Made by a program: the position numbers and the translations under genes
The notes under the pieces: generated by a model
What the model was told of the DNA's origin: nothing
The model's database searches: none
Seen by the model: the letters and a program-made list of their open reading frames with translations, nothing else
In this document: positions 41,770 through 50,622 of the stretch, one piece after another
Layout: each line of letters begins with the position of its first letter
Position numbering within the stretch: the stretch's first letter is position 1
Source of the DNA: Bdellovibrionales bacterium
GTDB lineage: Bacteria; Bdellovibrionota; Bdellovibrionia; Bdellovibrionales; JAGQZY01
Length of the DNA: 64,000 bases
Assembly (NCBI GenBank): GCA_031426555.1
Contig: JANPLN010000064.1
Location: 24,931 to 88,930 of the forward strand
Direction: 5' to 3'

Positions 41770-43671
41770 TTATGAAGATCTGACGAGCTTTTTCGTCCAG
41801 GTTGAGATCGATGAGCACTGAGTTTCAGCGATGTCGCAGAACTGCACCCCGTAGGATTTGCGTTCCTGACTCCACACCACTTTACCAAGCACTTGAACTC
41901 GCTCTTTGCCATCGGGACTCATGATGTTCATTTCAACGATTCCACCCTGCTCAAGCAATGCTTCCGTATCAATCTTCACGCCACCAAGCGAAATGGAACT
42001 GACAGAGCCGACAAGCTCTTTGTCGCCAACGCTGATGCGCACTTCTGATTTGATATTATAACGCTGATACGCTCGGCGATCGTCTTCTTCTTTGCGACGC
42101 ATTTTAAGTACAAATGCCACAGCGAAGGGGCTCAACACGATCAGCATCAATAGTCCGCGACCGGCAATGTCCGCTGATGACTCGCCAGAGATTTGCTTAA
42201 CAAGTCCGCAACCACCGCTGGCACCGCCCTCGGAGGCCACACTGCGGCTGGCAGTATAATCTGGCTGAGAGGTACTGATCGCGTTGTTTTTAGCATAGGT
42301 TACCGCTTTGAAAACATTCACACGGGCGTTTGTTGTGACTTTGCCATTCACATTCCCCACATTCGAATCGTTCTGGGCGTAGAGAATTTGCCCCGCCTGA
42401 TAGCCGTTAATTTCTTGACCCGCTTCGCGCTCCATTAGCGCAATAATTCCAGCCACCAGTGGCGCCGCCATGCTGGTTCCAGAGGCGTATGCATAACTGT
42501 TGTTTGGCAATGTACTTAAAATACCAACCCCGGGGCTGGCGATATCAACTGTCGAGCGTCCGAAGTTTGAAAAGCTCGCCATGGTGTCGCTGTCACTGGT
42601 AGCTGCGATGGATATTAGATTTCCCACGGAATAGTTTGAAGGATAGGTGGGACTGTTATCGTTATTATTACTGGCGTTTCCTGCAGCGGCAACAAAGGTC
42701 AGACCGTTGGCATAAGCCTCAACAATGGCATCTAGCAAAGCGGCACTATAACTACCGCCGCCCCAAGAGGCATTGATCACAGAAGCGCCGTTTTCGATGG
42801 CGTAATAGATAGCTTCGATGGCGTCGGAGGTGGCGCCACTGCCTGTGCTGTCCAAAAACTTCAGCGGCATGATCTTAATTTTAGCCGGCGTAAGTGTCAT
42901 TGCAAAAATATCCTGAGTGACACCAAGGATAATTCCCGACACGTGGGTTCCATGGTCTTCGTCGTCCATGGGATTGTTGTTGTTCGCTACAAAATTCCAA
43001 CCGCGAATGTCGTCGATATATCCATTGTGATCATCGTCAATTCCATTGCTTGCGATCTCATCGGTGTTTCGCCAAACGGCATTGGCATCCACAAAAATTT
43101 CGTGATTATAATCCAAGCCAGTATCGATCACTGCCACCACGGGCACAACGGATGAGGTTGGCGCTAAAATATTCCAAGCCTGTTCCACTTGAATCGCAGC
43201 GTCCGATTGATAATAAGTGGGCACGGTAAATGACGTCACACCCGAAGCGCTAATTGAATTCAAGGCTTCGGATTTTGAAAACTTATTACTCTCCAACCCT
43301 GCGCTTTGTTTCCTAAATATGTAATTTGGCTCCGCGTACTCCACGTTTGGATCGGCACGCAGCTGTTGCAAAAGCTGTTCAACGTTTTGTTGCCCCGCTT
43401 TTGCTTGAAAATGATGGGTATTTAAAAGATTCCAAGATTTTTTAAGATTCACACTCAAGCCTATGGCTTTGCTACTAAAACTCGCACTGCCCGCCTGTTC
43501 TTTTTTAAACTTAACAATCACTTCGCCAGGAACGTATTCTTGAGCCTGTGCCAAGCTTGAAGCCAACAAAAGCGCGCACCAAATCGTTGCAATGTAACTA
43601 CAAAATATAGGCAAAATACACCCCTTGCTGTACTTAGATCCTATCGGTTGAACGAAAAAAAAATAAAGCAA
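41770..43671 (-). CDS. Secreted S8 subtilisin-family protease with a C-terminal TM anchor and cytoplasmic PilZ domain
   Basis: Catalytic motifs VAVIDTGLDYNH, HGTHVSGII, AAAGNAS, GTSMAAPLVAGIIAL. TM LLMLIVLSPFAVAFVL followed by KMRRKEEDD. PilZ motifs RRAYQR (RxxxR) and SISLGG ((D/N/S)xSxxG). No ATG start; TTG candidates at 43671 and 43614 (the latter with AAGGGG upstream). Confidence 0.8.
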   Translation of the reverse strand: MLYFFFVQPIGSKYSKGCILPIFCSYIATIWCALLLASSLAQAQEYVPGEVIVKFKKEQAGSASFSSKAIGLSVNLKKSWNLLNTHHFQAKAGQQNVEQLLQQLRADPNVEYAEPNYIFRKQSAGLESNKFSKSEALNSISASGVTSFTVPTYYQSDAAIQVEQAWNILAPTSSVVPVVAVIDTGLDYNHEIFVDANAVWRNTDEIASNGIDDDHNGYIDDIRGWNFVANNNNPMDDEDHGTHVSGIILGVTQDIFAMTLTPAKIKIMPLKFLDSTGSGATSDAIEAIYYAIENGASVINASWGGGSYSAALLDAIVEAYANGLTFVAAAGNASNNNDNSPTYPSNYSVGNLISIAATSDSDTMASFSNFGRSTVDIASPGVGILSTLPNNSYAYASGTSMAAPLVAGIIALMEREAGQEINGYQAGQILYAQNDSNVGNVNGKVTTNARVNVFKAVTYAKNNAISTSQPDYTASRSVASEGGASGGCGLVKQISGESSADIAGRGLLMLIVLSPFAVAFVLKMRRKEEDDRRAYQRYNIKSEVRISVGDKELVGSVSSISLGGVKIDTEALLEQGGIVEMNIMSPDGKERVQVLGKVVWSQERKSYGVQFCDIAETQCSSISTWTKKLVRSS

Positions 43672-43740
43672 CTAAGGGAATCTTTGCCCCTTTCACGACC
43701 GATTCTCAACTTGAGACAATTGCGGCATCTCATGATGAAA

Positions 43741-43901
43741 CCATTTTTACTTTTTTATATATTTTCCCTTTTTTTAGAATGTTAAAAATAGGACGCGGGC
43801 ATCGTGCCCTCAACCGCACAGTCTTACGCCATCCTGGCGCTGCGGAGGTCCTATTTTCAACATTCTAAAAAATGGAAAAATATATAAAAAAGCAAAAATG
43901 G
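43741..43901 (-). ncRNA. Structured element E1: 54-bp imperfect stem enclosing a 53-nt GC-rich two-hairpin core (unassigned family)
   Basis: Arms 43741-43794 / 43848-43901 are complementary at 50/54 positions. Core 43795-43847. 3 of the 4 stem mismatches are G:U on the minus-strand transcript. Lies 70 nt upstream of the S8-PilZ ORF. Confidence 0.45.
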
Positions 43902-43993
43902 CCCACTTGCACCCGGAATGCTGAAAGTTATCTTGCGTTTACTTTATGATGTTGCAGTTCATGTGCTGGTATCGATTGCGGGATTTGTGAAGA

Positions 43994-44140
43994 TTGATTT
44001 TTACTTTGGGTTCAGTTTCCGAAAACTTACTAAATGGGACCTCTGCAGCGCCAGGATGGCGTACGACTCTGCAGTTGAGGGCACGATGCCCGCGTCCTAT
44101 TTAGTGAGTTTTTGGAAACTGAACCCAAAGTAAAAATTAA
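43994..44140 (+). ncRNA. Structured element E2: 47-bp imperfect stem enclosing the same core in inverted orientation
   Basis: Arms 43994-44040 / 44094-44140 are complementary at 43/47 positions. Core 44041-44093 is the reverse complement of the E1 core (49/53). All 4 stem mismatches are G:U on the plus-strand transcript. Confidence 0.45.
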
Positions 44141-44188
44141 AGTTTATAAATCTCGCGCGGCACACTCTCGTGTGCCTGCTGAGGTTAT

Positions 44189-47101: not shown

Positions 47102-49038
47102 AGATTCACATCAGCTACGAAGAACCTGCTCTCCGAGAGCTGCAAAATAGAGGCAGCCTTCTTTACATTGCTTTAGGATCGCTTTTTTCTTTTCTTATTC
47201 TGCGGCTCATTTACTTACAGATGATACAGGGAAGCGCGTTGTATGCCTTCTCCGAGAAAAACCTGCTCAAAGAAATTCGCGTGCAGCCCCCTCGCGGCAT
47301 CATCTACGATCGCAATCATCGCATCATCGCCGAAAACCTACCCAACTTCGCACTCACTCTTTCCCCACAATATATTAAAGACCTTCCTCCTCTCGCCCAC
47401 GAGATCAGTGAAATCGTCGGTATTCCCAAAGAAGAAATCATCAATAAGTTTAAAAAAGACTCACGGATCAACGGCTCCTATCGACCCGTGACGATTAAGA
47501 ACTTTTTGAACAGAACCGAAATCAATCGGTTGGAGTTGTTAAAAATCGATTTTCCAGGAATCGACATCGAAGAATTGATCTTTCGCGAATATCCCTATCG
47601 CGACGCTTTTGCCCACGCTATTGGATATATCAGCGAAATCTCCGACACGGAACTCCCGCGCTTGCGCGAAAAAGGCAATCGCATCGTCCAACAAGGCGAC
47701 GTGATTGGAAAGAGCGGCCTGGAAGATCGTTACGACGATTTTGTTCGCGGCGTGACTGGTATTTCCTATGTGAAAGTGGACGCAAAAGGTCGCGAAGCCC
47801 TTGGAGAGTCCCTTAAGTTTTTAGGGAGTATCGAAGACCTTCCCCCGAAGGCTGGTCAAAATATAGAGACCACTTTGGATCTCGATCTGCAACTGGCCGC
47901 CCAAGAAACTTTTTTGAAACACAAACAAACTGGCGCGCTGGTCGCGATCAACAAACAGGGCGAAGTCTTGGCTCTTTATAATAATCCATCGTTTGATCCC
48001 GGTTTGTTTTCAAAAGGAATCACCAGTGACGTCTGGTCTAAACTTATCAATAATCCCGATAAACCACTGCGCAACAAGGCGATTCAAGATCACCACTCGC
48101 CGGGTTCCACCTTCAAACCGTTTATTGCCTTAACCAGTTTACAGGATGGAAATATCAAAGAAAAAACTCTGGTGAACGCTCCACCCGTCTTTATGTTTGG
48201 AAATCGTCCCTACCACGATCATACAAAAACCGGGCAAGGGTATATCACCGTCACGCAGGCCATCGAAATGTCGAGCAACGTGTTTTTTTACAAACAAGGC
48301 TTGGCAACCGGAGTTGATAAGATTGCGCTTTACACCAAGGCTCTGGGACTGGGCGCGCGCACAGATATCGATCTTAAAAACGAAGTGCCAGGACTGATTC
48401 CCACTTCAGAATGGAAACAAAAAAATCGCGGTGAACCTTGGCAGGAAGGCGAAAACATCAGTATCGCCATCGGACAGGGCTTCGTTTCTGTGACAACATT
48501 GCAGCTCGCAACGGCCTACATGGCCATTGCCAACAGCGGCAAAGTTTATAAGCCCATGGTGGTGAAAAAAATCATGGATACCGAAAACCGCGTGCTGCAA
48601 GAGTTTTCGCCCACACTGGTGAATGACCTTACAGACCCCACAAAACCCTATTATGTTTCGCCTGATAATTTTAAAATTGTGCAGAAGGGATTGTTCCTGG
48701 TGGCAAACGGCGAGCGAGGGACAGCTCGCGGCGCAAAAATTCCAGGATTCACCATCGCTGGAAAAACCGGAACAGCGCAGGTGCGAGGGTTCTCGGCCGA
48801 TCAGGTGTATGCCAACTGTTACAATCGCCCCAAAAAACAACGCCACAACGGACTTTACATCGCTTACGGACCCTTCGAGGACCCCGAAATCACTGTTGCC
48901 GTTTTAACCGAAGGCTCATGCTCCTCCAAAGAGGCTGTGCCCTTGGTTAAAGAGTTTTACGAATCTTATGTTAAAAAATACCATCCTCAGGCCATCACGC
49001 AAAACTCTGAGCCAGATACCAAAAAGGGCAAACAATGA
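47098..49038 (+). CDS. mrdA: Penicillin-binding protein 2 (elongasome transpeptidase)
   Basis: 646 aa. RGIIYDRNHRIIAEN, SPGSTFKP (SxxK), transpeptidase KTGTAQ. Confidence 0.9.
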   Translation: MKIHISYEEPALRELQNRGSLLYIALGSLFSFLILRLIYLQMIQGSALYAFSEKNLLKEIRVQPPRGIIYDRNHRIIAENLPNFALTLSPQYIKDLPPLAHEISEIVGIPKEEIINKFKKDSRINGSYRPVTIKNFLNRTEINRLELLKIDFPGIDIEELIFREYPYRDAFAHAIGYISEISDTELPRLREKGNRIVQQGDVIGKSGLEDRYDDFVRGVTGISYVKVDAKGREALGESLKFLGSIEDLPPKAGQNIETTLDLDLQLAAQETFLKHKQTGALVAINKQGEVLALYNNPSFDPGLFSKGITSDVWSKLINNPDKPLRNKAIQDHHSPGSTFKPFIALTSLQDGNIKEKTLVNAPPVFMFGNRPYHDHTKTGQGYITVTQAIEMSSNVFFYKQGLATGVDKIALYTKALGLGARTDIDLKNEVPGLIPTSEWKQKNRGEPWQEGENISIAIGQGFVSVTTLQLATAYMAIANSGKVYKPMVVKKIMDTENRVLQEFSPTLVNDLTDPTKPYYVSPDNFKIVQKGLFLVANGERGTARGAKIPGFTIAGKTGTAQVRGFSADQVYANCYNRPKKQRHNGLYIAYGPFEDPEITVAVLTEGSCSSKEAVPLVKEFYESYVKKYHPQAITQNSEPDTKKGKQ

Positions 49039-50165
49039 TGAGGCATCCAGGACTTTCTGTCCCTATTGGGCAAAACACGTTCCTCAAGCGCTTTAGCTTT
49101 TACATGATTCTCAGCGTGCTCATGCTGAACGCCATTTCGCTAATTAATCTTTTAAGCGCCACCACCAACATCGCAAAACATCTAAAGGGTATTTTTTATT
49201 CGCAAATCATGTGGATTGCCATCGGTTGGGCTCTTTACTGGCTTCTCACATTTGTGAGTTACCGCTTTTTTGTTCGCTTTGCTTACGTCTTTTATATTGT
49301 AAATATTGGCGCGCTCATCGCCGTGATGTTCATTGGTAAAACCTCCTACGGAGCTCAGCGCTGGATTGATCTTGGTTTTTTTAGTTATCAGCCCTCGGAA
49401 ACAATGAAGCTCGCAATGATTTTAGTTCTTGCAAAGTACCTATCTCGCTTTAACCCGTCGGATGGCATAGGCTTTCGAAATTTATTTGTGCCCATGTTGC
49501 TCGCGGGAATCCCTTTTGCGCTCACAGCCAAACAACCGGATTTGGGAACGGCGCTGTTAATCCTCGCCATTTCAGCTTCGATGATTTTGACCATGCGAGT
49601 TCGTATGCACGTGCTCGTCACTGGTTTGTGCGTGGCTCTGGTGGCAGGCCCGCTAGCCTGGCAGTACGGGTTAAAACCCTATCAAAAGAATCGCGTACTT
49701 ACATTCTTATACCCCAACAAGGATCCTCGGGGTGCTGGCTACAATAGCATCCAAGCAAAAATCGCAGTGGGCAGCGGCCAACTTTGGGGAAAAGGTTTTA
49801 GAAACGGCTCGCAAAGCCAACTAGAGTTCCTCCCTGAAAAACAAACTGATTTTATTTTTTGTGTTCTCAGCGAAGAGTACGGCTTTTTGGGTTGCATCGC
49901 TACCTTAGGAATTTACGCCATCTTGCTCATGGCCATTTTACAATGTGCGATGACGGCGAAAGATCTTTATGGGGCTCTCTTATCCATAGGAGTGTTTTCC
50001 CTCGTCATCTGGCACGTCTTCGTAAATATAGGAATGGTAACAGGTTTGTTACCGATTGTGGGCGTGCCTCTGCCGCTCATCTCCTATGGGGGAACAAGCA
50101 GCATGACCATGATGGTGGGGCTCGGCTGGATCTCCAGCGTCTTTTACCGAAAAGATATGTTTTAA
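49035..50165 (+). CDS. rodA: SEDS glycosyltransferase RodA
   Basis: 376 aa. QPSETMKLAMILVLA, DLGTALL, TDFIFCVLSEEYGFLG, PLPLISYGGTS. Confidence 0.9.
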   Translation: MMRHPGLSVPIGQNTFLKRFSFYMILSVLMLNAISLINLLSATTNIAKHLKGIFYSQIMWIAIGWALYWLLTFVSYRFFVRFAYVFYIVNIGALIAVMFIGKTSYGAQRWIDLGFFSYQPSETMKLAMILVLAKYLSRFNPSDGIGFRNLFVPMLLAGIPFALTAKQPDLGTALLILAISASMILTMRVRMHVLVTGLCVALVAGPLAWQYGLKPYQKNRVLTFLYPNKDPRGAGYNSIQAKIAVGSGQLWGKGFRNGSQSQLEFLPEKQTDFIFCVLSEEYGFLGCIATLGIYAILLMAILQCAMTAKDLYGALLSIGVFSLVIWHVFVNIGMVTGLLPIVGVPLPLISYGGTSSMTMMVGLGWISSVFYRKDMF

Positions 50166-50296
50166 GGTACGGACACACTTTTGGGACTCGTCGCATAATT
50201 AATTTCCAATTTTATTATGCGACGAGTCCCAAAAGGTGTGGCAACGGAGCAAGCTCGGCTTGCGAACGAGCGCCAAAGGCGCCCTTGCCGTACCTT
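50164..50296. other. Composite hairpin element filling the rodA/trxA convergent gap exactly
   Basis: Closing stem 50164-50172 / 50288-50296 (9 bp, overlapping both stop codons). 26-bp hairpin 50174-50199 / 50214-50240 with one bulged G. GC hairpins GCAAGC-TCG-GCTTGC (50249-50263) and GCGCC-AAA-GGCGC (50270-50282). Confidence 0.5.
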
Positions 50297-50622
50297 TAGA
50301 TGTGTTTGGTCAGCATCGCTTTGATGCTGTCTTTGGGATGGTTGCCAACGAGTTGATCGACCATTTTCCCATCCTTAAAAAGCATCAGTGTTGGAACTCC
50401 GCGCACGCTGTAAGTGACCGGTGTTTCCTGATTACTATCGATATCCACTTTGCAAACTTTCATCTTGCTATCAAACTCGAGAGCCAGTTCTTCGAGCTTT
50501 GGCGCTAGGGCCCGGCAAGGTCCACACCACTCTGCCCAAAAGTCCACCAACACGGGAGTACTGGACTTTAGCACGTCAGAATCGAAACTTGCGTCACTTG
50601 AATTCATAATATTTTGGGCCAT
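50296..50622 (-). CDS. trxA: Thioredoxin
   Basis: 108 aa with the WAEWCGPCR active site. Confidence 0.9.
   Translation of the reverse strand: MAQNIMNSSDASFDSDVLKSSTPVLVDFWAEWCGPCRALAPKLEELALEFDSKMKVCKVDIDSNQETPVTYSVRGVPTLMLFKDGKMVDQLVGNHPKDSIKAMLTKHI

Follow-up and report, generated by a model that had tools for sequence, protein, structure and literature searches.

Two inverted copies of a Y-headed palindromic element, best described as a REP/REPIN-like repeat, between ppiD and an S8-PilZ gene of a Bdellovibrionales bacterium

Why does a bacterial intergenic region hold two long hairpins that are inverted copies of each other, and are these hairpins RNA regulators of the adjoining genes or pieces of DNA that were inserted there? 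The region in question lies in a stretch of 64,000 nt from a Bdellovibrionales bacterium (GenBank assembly GCA_031426555.1, contig JANPLN010000064.1, positions 24,931 to 88,930, forward strand; “the window” in the following), between ppiD, which encodes a PpiD-like protein with SurA_N and rotamase domains, and a gene for a protein that combines Peptidase_S8 and PilZ (S8-PilZ). The first-pass annotation of the window described two homologous elements in this gap, E1 and E2, and regarded them as a possible new RNA family. We come to a different interpretation, to which we assign a probability of roughly 55%: E1 and E2 would be two inverted copies of a non-coding nested palindromic element that resembles repetitive extragenic palindromic (REP) sequences and REPINs (REP doublets forming hairpins) and that acts as a folded single strand. 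They are best described as copies of an undescribed repeat family that represents a new architectural variant of REP/REPIN-like repeats, and they look like inserted REP-type palindromic DNA rather than like a regulator of the PilZ-protease gene.

Fold, relatives and divergence of the two elements

The elements and their parts, in window coordinates, are:

43741 to 43901, minus strand as the wobble-tolerant (“sense”) strand: E1, with 54-nt arms and a 53-nt head; covariance-model score 103.7 bits
43795 to 43847, minus strand: head of E1, a three-way junction of helix P2, hairpin 1 and hairpin 2
43902 to 43977, no strand: spacer between E1 and E2, 13% diverged from the related locus L120 and taken as local neutral yardstick
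43978 to 44156, plus strand as sense strand: E2 in its full extent, with 63-nt arms and a 53-nt head; covariance-model score 103.3 bits
44041 to 44093, plus strand: head of E2, an inverted copy of the E1 head with 49 of 53 positions identical

That the two elements are homologous, inverted and bounded by complementary arms was borne out by an inverted-repeat search and by their alignment. The arms of E1 (43741-43794 and 43848-43901, 54 nt) are 93% complementary, those of E2 (43978-44040 and 44094-44156, 63 nt) 86%; the arms of E2 are real, but they extend further than initially described, when 47-nt arms and an element from 43994 to 44140 had been reported. As an inverted pair, the cores cover 71 nt (43786-43856 and 44032-44102, 93%). 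Similarly, the gap between the genes exists, but it measures about 575 nt and not 517 bp, as the length of the S8-PilZ homologues (614 aa) places the start codon near 43614. Within the 64 kb, E1 and E2 are the only long inverted repeats besides one unrelated palindrome (50178-50235), and no further copy of the core was found. A 71-aa open reading frame with ATG start (43918-44133, plus strand) covers the spacer together with most of E2. As it overlaps E2 and Pfam gave no match, it was treated as spurious.

In minimum-free-energy folds, each element is a long AT-rich stem whose 53-nt top branches at a three-way junction into the triloop hairpins GCCA-GGA-UGGC and GGGCA-CGA-UGCCC. In case of E1, helix P2 (CCGCA/UGCGG) surrounds hairpin 1 (CGCCA-GGA-UGGCG) and a 7-nt internal loop on the 3' side, and hairpin 2 is GGGCA-CGA-UGCCC. 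The folds of both senses agree with the two-hairpin head that had been drawn by eye, with z = -12 to -15 and none of 200 shuffles folding equally well for E1 or E2. The alignment of the cores, with E1 read on the minus and E2 on the plus strand, also confirmed that two of the four differences constitute a single compensatory swap, CCGCA/UGCGG versus CUGCA/UGCAG.

As the first-pass annotation had stated, no known RNA family fits this fold: Rfam 15 gave no match at gathering score in the window and only one tRNA in 18 related loci, and scans with permissive E-values returned generic long-hairpin miRNA models far under their thresholds. TwoAYGGAY RNA (RF01731) scored 27.8-28.0 bits on both strands alike, against a threshold of 43, which is a generic hairpin match; this family requires two AYGGAY terminal loops, and the elements have GGA and CGA triloops. 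An intrinsic terminator is not formed by either element, since no T-run follows E1 or E2 on either strand, and the sole terminator-like site is a separate hairpin (43692-43674). Integron attC sites were rejected as well, as the stem base reads ATTTTTRC/GYAAAAAT instead of the R''(RYYYAAC)/R'(GTTRRRY) boxes, and as the copies are solitary or inverted and cassette arrays are absent.

Wobble pairs favour the minus strand at E1 and the plus strand at E2, just as had been proposed, and the calculated RNA energies agree (E1: -86.3 kcal/mol for minus versus -71.6 for plus; E2: -90.0 kcal/mol for plus versus -75.8 for minus). In both phyla that hold such elements (see below), this polarity tracks the orientation of the element and not the strand of the chromosome. 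The same strand asymmetry appears with DNA parameters (-55.4 versus -49.0 for E1, -50.2 versus -43.8 for E2), and polarity therefore cannot separate RNA from single-stranded DNA (ssDNA). Of the earlier claim that selection acts on a folded single strand of defined polarity, the fold and the polarity hold, but that this strand is RNA as opposed to ssDNA does not follow from the polarity.

Relatives were sought by a pattern scan of one genome per species (GCCAGGATGGC-N12-32-GGCACGATGCC), which yielded at least 119 loci; about half of the matches, forming groups with 53-nt, 47-nt and similar spacings, are conserved proteobacterial coding regions and were discarded. A further scan of metagenomes with GCCAGGATGGCGTA-N14-22-CACGATG gave 55 loci, all of which are coincidences in coding sequences of GC-rich genomes, and in the texts of papers the hairpin strings matched unrelated primers only. 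The Bdello type is present in L049 and L113, two contigs of one Bdellovibrionota metagenome-assembled genome (MAG; JAZKJI01), with identical heads built like those of E1 and E2; the arms, about 43 nt long and perfect, are unlike each other and unlike the arms of E1 and E2. The first-pass annotation had recommended a covariance model of E1 and E2 for finding more members. Such a model, based on six copies of the Bdello type, matched only E1 and E2 in the window, both elements in the close relatives L120 to L122 (96% identity) and one copy each in L049, L113 and L185; in about 100 kb of sister-species DNA it found no copy.

At least about 40 distinct copies belong to the Planctomycetota type. 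They fold into a GC-rich hairpin some 140 nt long, in which both triloop hairpins again meet in a three-way junction. The P2 helix of this type is long, and a proximal segment of 7-9 bp is wholly different between copies yet complementary. Single Planctomycetota MAGs carry at least 9, 5, 4, 3, 3 and 3 loci, respectively, and many copies lie no more than 100 nt from contig ends, a position that is expected because repeats break assemblies. Two copies of this type were found in an alphaproteobacterial MAG (L031). These two are identical and lie 263 nt apart in a tandemly duplicated segment (L031 6910-7224, minus strand). Hairpins of the form G(G/C)CA-NGA-TG(G/C)C, all in the same orientation or in both, are clustered in MAGs of Planctomycetota, Phycisphaerae, Verrucomicrobiales and Terriglobia, among them groups of mixed orientation (L050, L053 and L028) and a cluster in L074 that resembles bacterial interspersed mosaic elements (BIMEs), with four hairpin triplets within 900 nt. 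The latter is situated on a 2.4-Mb Planctomycetota contig (L074 1500-2500, minus strand) and consists of four tandem units about 260-290 nt apart, one of them degenerate, with the hairpins GCGGGC-NGGA-TGCCCGC, GCCA-GGA-TGGC and GCGGGCA-CGA-TGCCCGC. In the Pirellulales MAG JBIIMU01 (L005, L032, L060), the Y-headed elements are surrounded by several occurrences of a second short repeat, ..GCATCGCTCACGCGATGGCGGCTTCC.., with the hairpin CATCGC/GCGATG; this suggests mosaic repeat clusters.

Compensatory change, noticed at first between E1 and E2 only, extends to these relatives. In the alignment of the six Bdello-type copies, 94.4% of the cells are paired and 18 of 36 pairs are doubly changed, values that none of 500 shuffles reached. 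In the alignment of 38 Planctomycetota copies, 90.5% of the cells are paired, compared with 31-43% in slid controls, and 23 of 49 pairs are doubly changed (127 cells). G:U or U:G cells outnumber A:C or C:A cells by 41 to 14 in the Planctomycetota alignment, and it is therefore the same strand, the one with GGA and CGA loops, that is favoured in both phyla. As the aligned copies are mutually related, none of these numbers counts independent events.

The comparison with L120 reveals how differently the parts of the elements evolve. The arms of E2 differ at 10 of 63 and 12 of 63 positions (16-19%) and the spacer at 10 of 76, and the head of E2 is unchanged (0/53), for which P ~1e-4 at the rate of arms and spacer. 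E1 has 1/54 and 1/54 differences in its arms, 3/53 in its head, including a compensatory change of hairpin 2 from GGGCA/TGCCC to GGACA/TGTCC in L120, and 5/126 in the flank up to the start codon. In the middle of the E2 arms, six base pairs are altered on both sides with complementarity kept. E2 of L120 is a perfect palindrome with about 66 nt per arm, where the outer arm of E2 in the window has four extra G:T wobbles (plus strand). Arms that diverge at an approximately neutral rate and yet remain complementary are not what slow, stepwise compensation under selection for RNA pairing predicts, and the pattern points to a concerted process at the DNA level, such as hairpin-templated correction or template switching, or to an exchange between copies. 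The frozen head of E2, in turn, shows a constraint on its specific sequence.

Insertion behind ppiD

The surroundings of the pair comprise the following features:

43742 to 44188, no strand: lineage-specific inserted block of about 445 nt, composed of a small hairpin, E2, the spacer and E1
44160 to 44177, minus strand: small hairpin GGCACAC-GAGA-GUGUGCC, right past the ppiD stop codon and within the inserted block
43674 to 43692, minus strand: hairpin resembling a terminator, with a T-run behind it, located between E1 and the probable promoter region of S8-PilZ; conserved in L120 to L122
43630 to 43663, minus strand: block TTTTTTTTTCGTTCAACCGATAGGATCTAAGTAC, kept at all orthologous loci, including those without the elements

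Orthologous loci were retrieved via homologues of the S8-PilZ protein. In L120 to L122, both elements are present and the gap measures 575-577 nt. The elements are absent in L123 (85% orthologue), where the gap is 168 nt, in L125 (77%), where it is 194 nt, and in L124 (80%), which has an unrelated gene for a 1159-aa protein without Pfam match at this site (L124 6344-9823). The intergenic site takes different insertions in different lineages. In L123, GTTTCAACTTGAGAT (GTTTCA..TGAGAT) directly follows the ppiD stop codon, and the counterpart in the window, GTTTCATCATGAGAT, follows the base of the E1 arm; from this comparison of boundaries, a block of about 445 nt has been inserted right behind the ppiD stop codon, with the base of the E1 arm at 43741 as its right boundary. 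The small hairpin at 44160-44177 is present in L120 to L122 and absent in L123 and L125. For a second empty-site comparison via the neighbour gene of the L113 element, only homologues of at most 57% identity with differing synteny were found.

The conserved block at 43630-43663 holds a TAGGAT hexamer that resembles a -10 box and lies some 25 nt ahead of the ribosome-binding site and the start codon; this block is probably the native S8-PilZ promoter region, a putative function. E1 lies upstream of this probable promoter, because the terminator-like hairpin and the conserved block are found in between, and its proposed position in the 5' leader of the PilZ-protease gene could not be upheld; a position in the 3' untranslated region (UTR) of ppiD is more likely. 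Likewise, the proposed outward transcription from the spacer found no support: promoter-like sites in the spacer are weak consensus matches that are no commoner than in shuffles, and no conserved upstream sequence that might serve as a promoter was found across the copies. With respect to their neighbour genes, E1 and L049 are co-oriented with both, and E2 and L113 are anti-oriented. The Planctomycetota copies are all intergenic, 8 in convergent and 3 in divergent contexts; in unidirectional contexts, 7 are co-oriented and 4 anti-oriented. There is no orientation rule as would be expected for a cis-acting RNA. The multi-copy occurrence and frequent contig-end location in Planctomycetota, the absence at the sister-species sites and the variable orientation are the behaviour of an interspersed repeat and do not fit the initial assignment to an RNA gene family.

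Known repeat systems, a possible partner and rival explanations

REP sequences beside REP-associated tyrosine transposases (RAYTs) of subclass 2.7 read GTGG and then GGTGGGCA-TCC-TGCCCGCC in Anabaena cylindrica, and CAGCCA-ATCC/ATCG-TGGCTG in Solibacter usitatus (Quentin et al., PMC6006769 Table S1). Their stems GGGCA/TGCCC or GCCA/TGGC with TCC/TCG loops are also what hairpins 1 and 2 show when read on the complementary strand, and the head hairpins are therefore of REP type. Where REP hairpins are GC-rich, 20-40 nt in size and have small loops, the stems found here are GC-rich with 5-6 bp and the loops have 3 nt; as in REPs and BIMEs, the elements are extragenic, have a fold specific for one strand, reach at least 9 loci in a Planctomycetota MAG, form an inverted pair in case of E1 and E2, and cluster in a BIME-like way in relatives such as L074. 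The blocks GAGCCGG, AAGCG, T[GC]AGCG and CGGGCA of the Planctomycetota type stand in the same order as in a class 3 entry of P. limnophilus, ACGAGCCGGAAGCGTCAGCGACGGGCATTT (PMC6006769 Table S1), and the taxa from which class 3 HuH-Y1 genes are mainly reported, i.e. Planctomycetes, Acidobacteria and Proteobacteria, overlap with those that hold the hairpin family.

What differs from REPs and REPINs is the architecture: a long stem ends in a three-way junction that is built from two hairpins in direct orientation. Dimers of REPs nested at the centre of long palindromes have been described (Di Nocera et al. 2013, PMC3733652); palindromes of that kind were not seen in an “empty” state, and the composite thus behaves as a single unit. 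The GTAG-15 repeats of A. variabilis and the CGTC-1 repeats of H. neapolitanus in that study share with our elements the small REP-type hairpins at the centre of a much longer palindrome, and in the window there is likewise no copy without a head. Those dimers, however, are tagged REPs in head-to-head or tail-to-tail arrangement and not direct hairpins, and those palindromes have a consensus sequence, whereas the middle parts of the Bdello-type arms are hypervariable. A CGTC-tagged REP was considered and rejected: it needs a stem of 8-9 bp starting with AT, a loop of 4-5 nt and a CCA tail, in contrast to the GC-rich 5-6 bp and 3-nt loops found here. The string CGTC(C) follows hairpin 2 in E1, E2 and Planctomycetota copies and is absent in L049 and L113.

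Ends of IS200/IS605 elements and palindrome-associated transposable elements (PATEs) also have two similar subterminal hairpins on one strand, are recognized strand-specifically as ssDNA and lack target-site duplications; they differ in that no TnpA or TnpB is associated with the elements described here and that the hairpins are about 20 nt apart inside a helix of 50-70 bp. Cleavage and guide tetranucleotides of the IS200/IS605 type could not be identified in the elements. With hairpin-forming miniature inverted-repeat transposable elements (MITEs; Correia/NEMIS, ERIC/IRU, RUP, bcr1), the elements have in common a non-coding, intergenic length of 100-190 nt, long hairpins and insertion polymorphism between strains, and such MITEs are likewise often co-transcribed in UTRs. 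Nevertheless, a head that is conserved across phyla would be unusual for a MITE, and this assignment was rejected, as the sequence common to E1 and E2 is limited to about 8 nt at the arm base (ATTTTTRC), the base of L049 and L113 differs, and no duplication was seen at five insertion sites. The first-pass annotation had named near-identical copies with target-site duplications and without compensatory substitutions as the mark of a simple MITE or REP; multiple copies and insertion polymorphism were indeed found, yet no duplications were seen and compensatory changes are present. In shape, the elements recall the inverted terminal repeat (ITR) of parvoviruses such as adeno-associated virus (AAV), a long stem with two small triloop hairpins in T or Y form that is read strand-specifically by an HUH endonuclease. 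This is an analogy of shape only, with no relation in sequence or genomic context, as our element is a chromosomal interspersed repeat and not the terminus of a replicon.

How could such a REP/REPIN-like element function? Each copy would consist of a freely varying long helix and a conserved Y-shaped head made of hairpins G(G/C)CA-(G/C)GA-UG(G/C)C, and the pair would have arrived within the one block of about 445 nt in the 3' region of ppiD in this lineage. The head may be a sequence-specific recognition module for a trans-acting protein that reads the folded single strand in one polarity. By analogy with REP/RAYT systems and IS200/IS605 ends, the most plausible partner would be an enzyme of the HUH-Y1 type acting on ssDNA exposed at replication. 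The arms would need only to pair, and their complementarity could result from a concerted process at the DNA level, either template switching within the strand or repair templated by the hairpin, from selection, or from the two together. As the pair is probably located in the ppiD 3' UTR, any effect on the expression of ppiD or S8-PilZ would at most be that of an RNA-stability or termination hairpin.

In a sister species (sample ERR11489098), there are at least four paralogous Y1_Tnp genes of 160 aa with 65-80% identity at unrelated loci (L123 663-1145, minus strand, and positions 6001-6483 of L181, L182 and L183), with the HUH motif DHWHICV and the Y motif YVLLNQ (Y----Q). A non-coding block (GACTCAA..ATTTGAC..AGGGCGAAGTCATAAA) of about 350 nt is conserved in front of each of these genes, and the L123 copy is followed by a 23-nt inverted repeat. 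An 8-mer, GCGTCCTA, was considered as a link to these genes and dismissed, as it is also found by chance elsewhere in the window.

Several observations weigh against a REP/REPIN-like mobile palindrome and its proposed partner. The flanks of the sister-species Y1_Tnp genes are without any motif of the E1/E2 type, the loci that carry the element, about 900 kb in all, yielded no Y1 gene, and no RAYT gene was found beside any copy. The 5' GT[AG]G foot of RAYT-type REPs is absent or only approximated: on the strand with TCC/TCG loops, the feet are GTAC (E2, L049, L113) and TTAC (E1), with GGAC or GGCC at hairpin 2, and CT[ACGT]C and GTTC in Planctomycetota. Moreover, RAYT-type REPs have their foot on the TCC-loop strand, and the wobble bias here favours the opposite strand with GGA and CGA. 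Classical REPINs consist of inverted REPs that form a conserved stem with a variable loop, and in the Bdello type it is the apex that is conserved and the middle of the arms that varies; the conserved arms of the Planctomycetota type are a partial likeness. No target-site duplication was found at five insertion sites, which also share no target motif. In Bdellovibrionota, the copy number is low, with two copies in a stretch of 64 kb, a single one in 21 kb and no copy in the roughly 100 kb from the sister species, and purifying selection on a head of such low copy number fits a function for the host as well as it fits selfish spread.

Could the elements then be a new family of structured non-coding RNAs, either small RNAs or cis-acting UTR elements, with a head that binds a protein or ligand and a helix that provides stability or RNase III processing? 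We consider this possible but doubtful. The extremely stable, covarying fold and the wobble preference for one strand in two phyla are what such a family would exhibit, and some junction nucleotides are unpaired yet conserved in Planctomycetota and alphaproteobacterial copies (e.g. CGAGUGAGCG and GCGAACGUCC); the E2 head is unchanged in a low-copy lineage, the E1 sense strand is co-oriented with ppiD and lies upstream of the terminator-like site, and 19 of 27 Planctomycetota copies have a co-oriented gene upstream, whose 3' UTR could thus include the sense strand. The same polarity results with DNA parameters, however, and neither an Rfam match nor a conserved promoter nor a U-tract terminator was found among the copies. 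Both neighbours run against the sense of the element at E2, at L113 and in 4 of the 11 Planctomycetota copies with unidirectional context, the orthologous site of the sister species is empty of the element, and the repeat-like copy number and contig-end location speak against an RNA gene. Both loops are triloops, with no GNRA or UNCG tetraloops or other motifs typical of RNA, and the near-neutral rate of the E2 arms with immediate compensation is hard to obtain from selection on RNA pairing alone. This last feature would be explained if the palindromes were functionless products of template switching at replication, with compensatory changes as a mutational by-product and without any recognition partner. 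L049, L113 and the E2 of L120 are nearly perfect palindromes, as such an origin would leave them, and another intergenic site of the same lineage carries polymorphic nested palindromes. We nonetheless regard a purely mutational origin as unlikely: the 53-nt head is not palindromic, is conserved across phyla and has no change next to neighbours with 16-19%, the wobble polarity tracks the orientation of the element, and at unlinked loci (L049, L113, E1, E2) one and the same head is joined to arms that are unrelated, which requires that a defined unit was copied or is mobile.

Very improbable, in our opinion, is an ssDNA signal left by an integrated or defunct replicon, i.e. a hairpin origin like a parvoviral ITR or a single-strand origin (sso), or a nick site of an HUH Rep protein or relaxase that works in one orientation. 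The T- or Y-shaped long hairpin with two triloop “ears”, its polarity and its equally good fold with DNA parameters would be in line with such a signal, and so would two inverted copies around a short spacer, but this spacer has just 76 nt and is non-coding. No Rep, relaxase, phage or plasmid genes adjoin any copy, viral contigs and a plasmid collection gave no match to the element, and the element is dispersed in Planctomycetota, with at least 9 loci in one MAG.

If the REP/REPIN-like interpretation is true, then two direct hairpins in a three-way junction atop a long, freely varying helix would be a new REP-type architecture common to distant phyla; neither Rfam nor the REP surveys that we compared include this Y-headed architecture. 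A bolder proposal goes further and takes the Y-headed hairpin as an undescribed family of at least Bdellovibrionota, Planctomycetota and one alphaproteobacterial MAG whose head is read single-stranded at fixed polarity by a dedicated partner, and whose helices are held complementary by an active concerted mechanism at neutral divergence, so that it would represent either a new non-autonomous mobile element spreading via a single strand (ssDNA- or RNA-mediated) or a structured RNA. We put this forward tentatively, with the odds clearly against it. Arms that diverge neutrally and still pair around a frozen, non-palindromic head are a natural example that bears on the use of “compensatory substitutions” as evidence of selection on RNA structure, and such hairpins should not be annotated as riboregulators of the adjoining gene.

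A second palindrome site in the window

A 132-nt four-way palindromic structure (50166-50297) is located between the convergent genes rodA (49035-50165, plus strand) and thioredoxin (trx; 50296-50622, minus strand). Its components are the outer stem GGTACGG/CCGTACC, one hairpin of 30 bp and the triloop hairpins GCAAGC-TCG-GCTTGC and GCGCC-AAA-GGCGC, with z = -10 on both strands. In L123 and L125, the rodA and trx genes overlap without any gap. The 96% strains L120 and L122 carry different nested palindromes at this site after a shared GGACACACTTTTGGGACTC..GCATAA, and the apex insert of L122 contains TCC-loop hairpins, which we count toward a REP-like nature. The intergenic regions ppiD/S8-PilZ and rodA/trx are to be treated as strain-variable insertion sites in the genomics of Bdellovibrionota.

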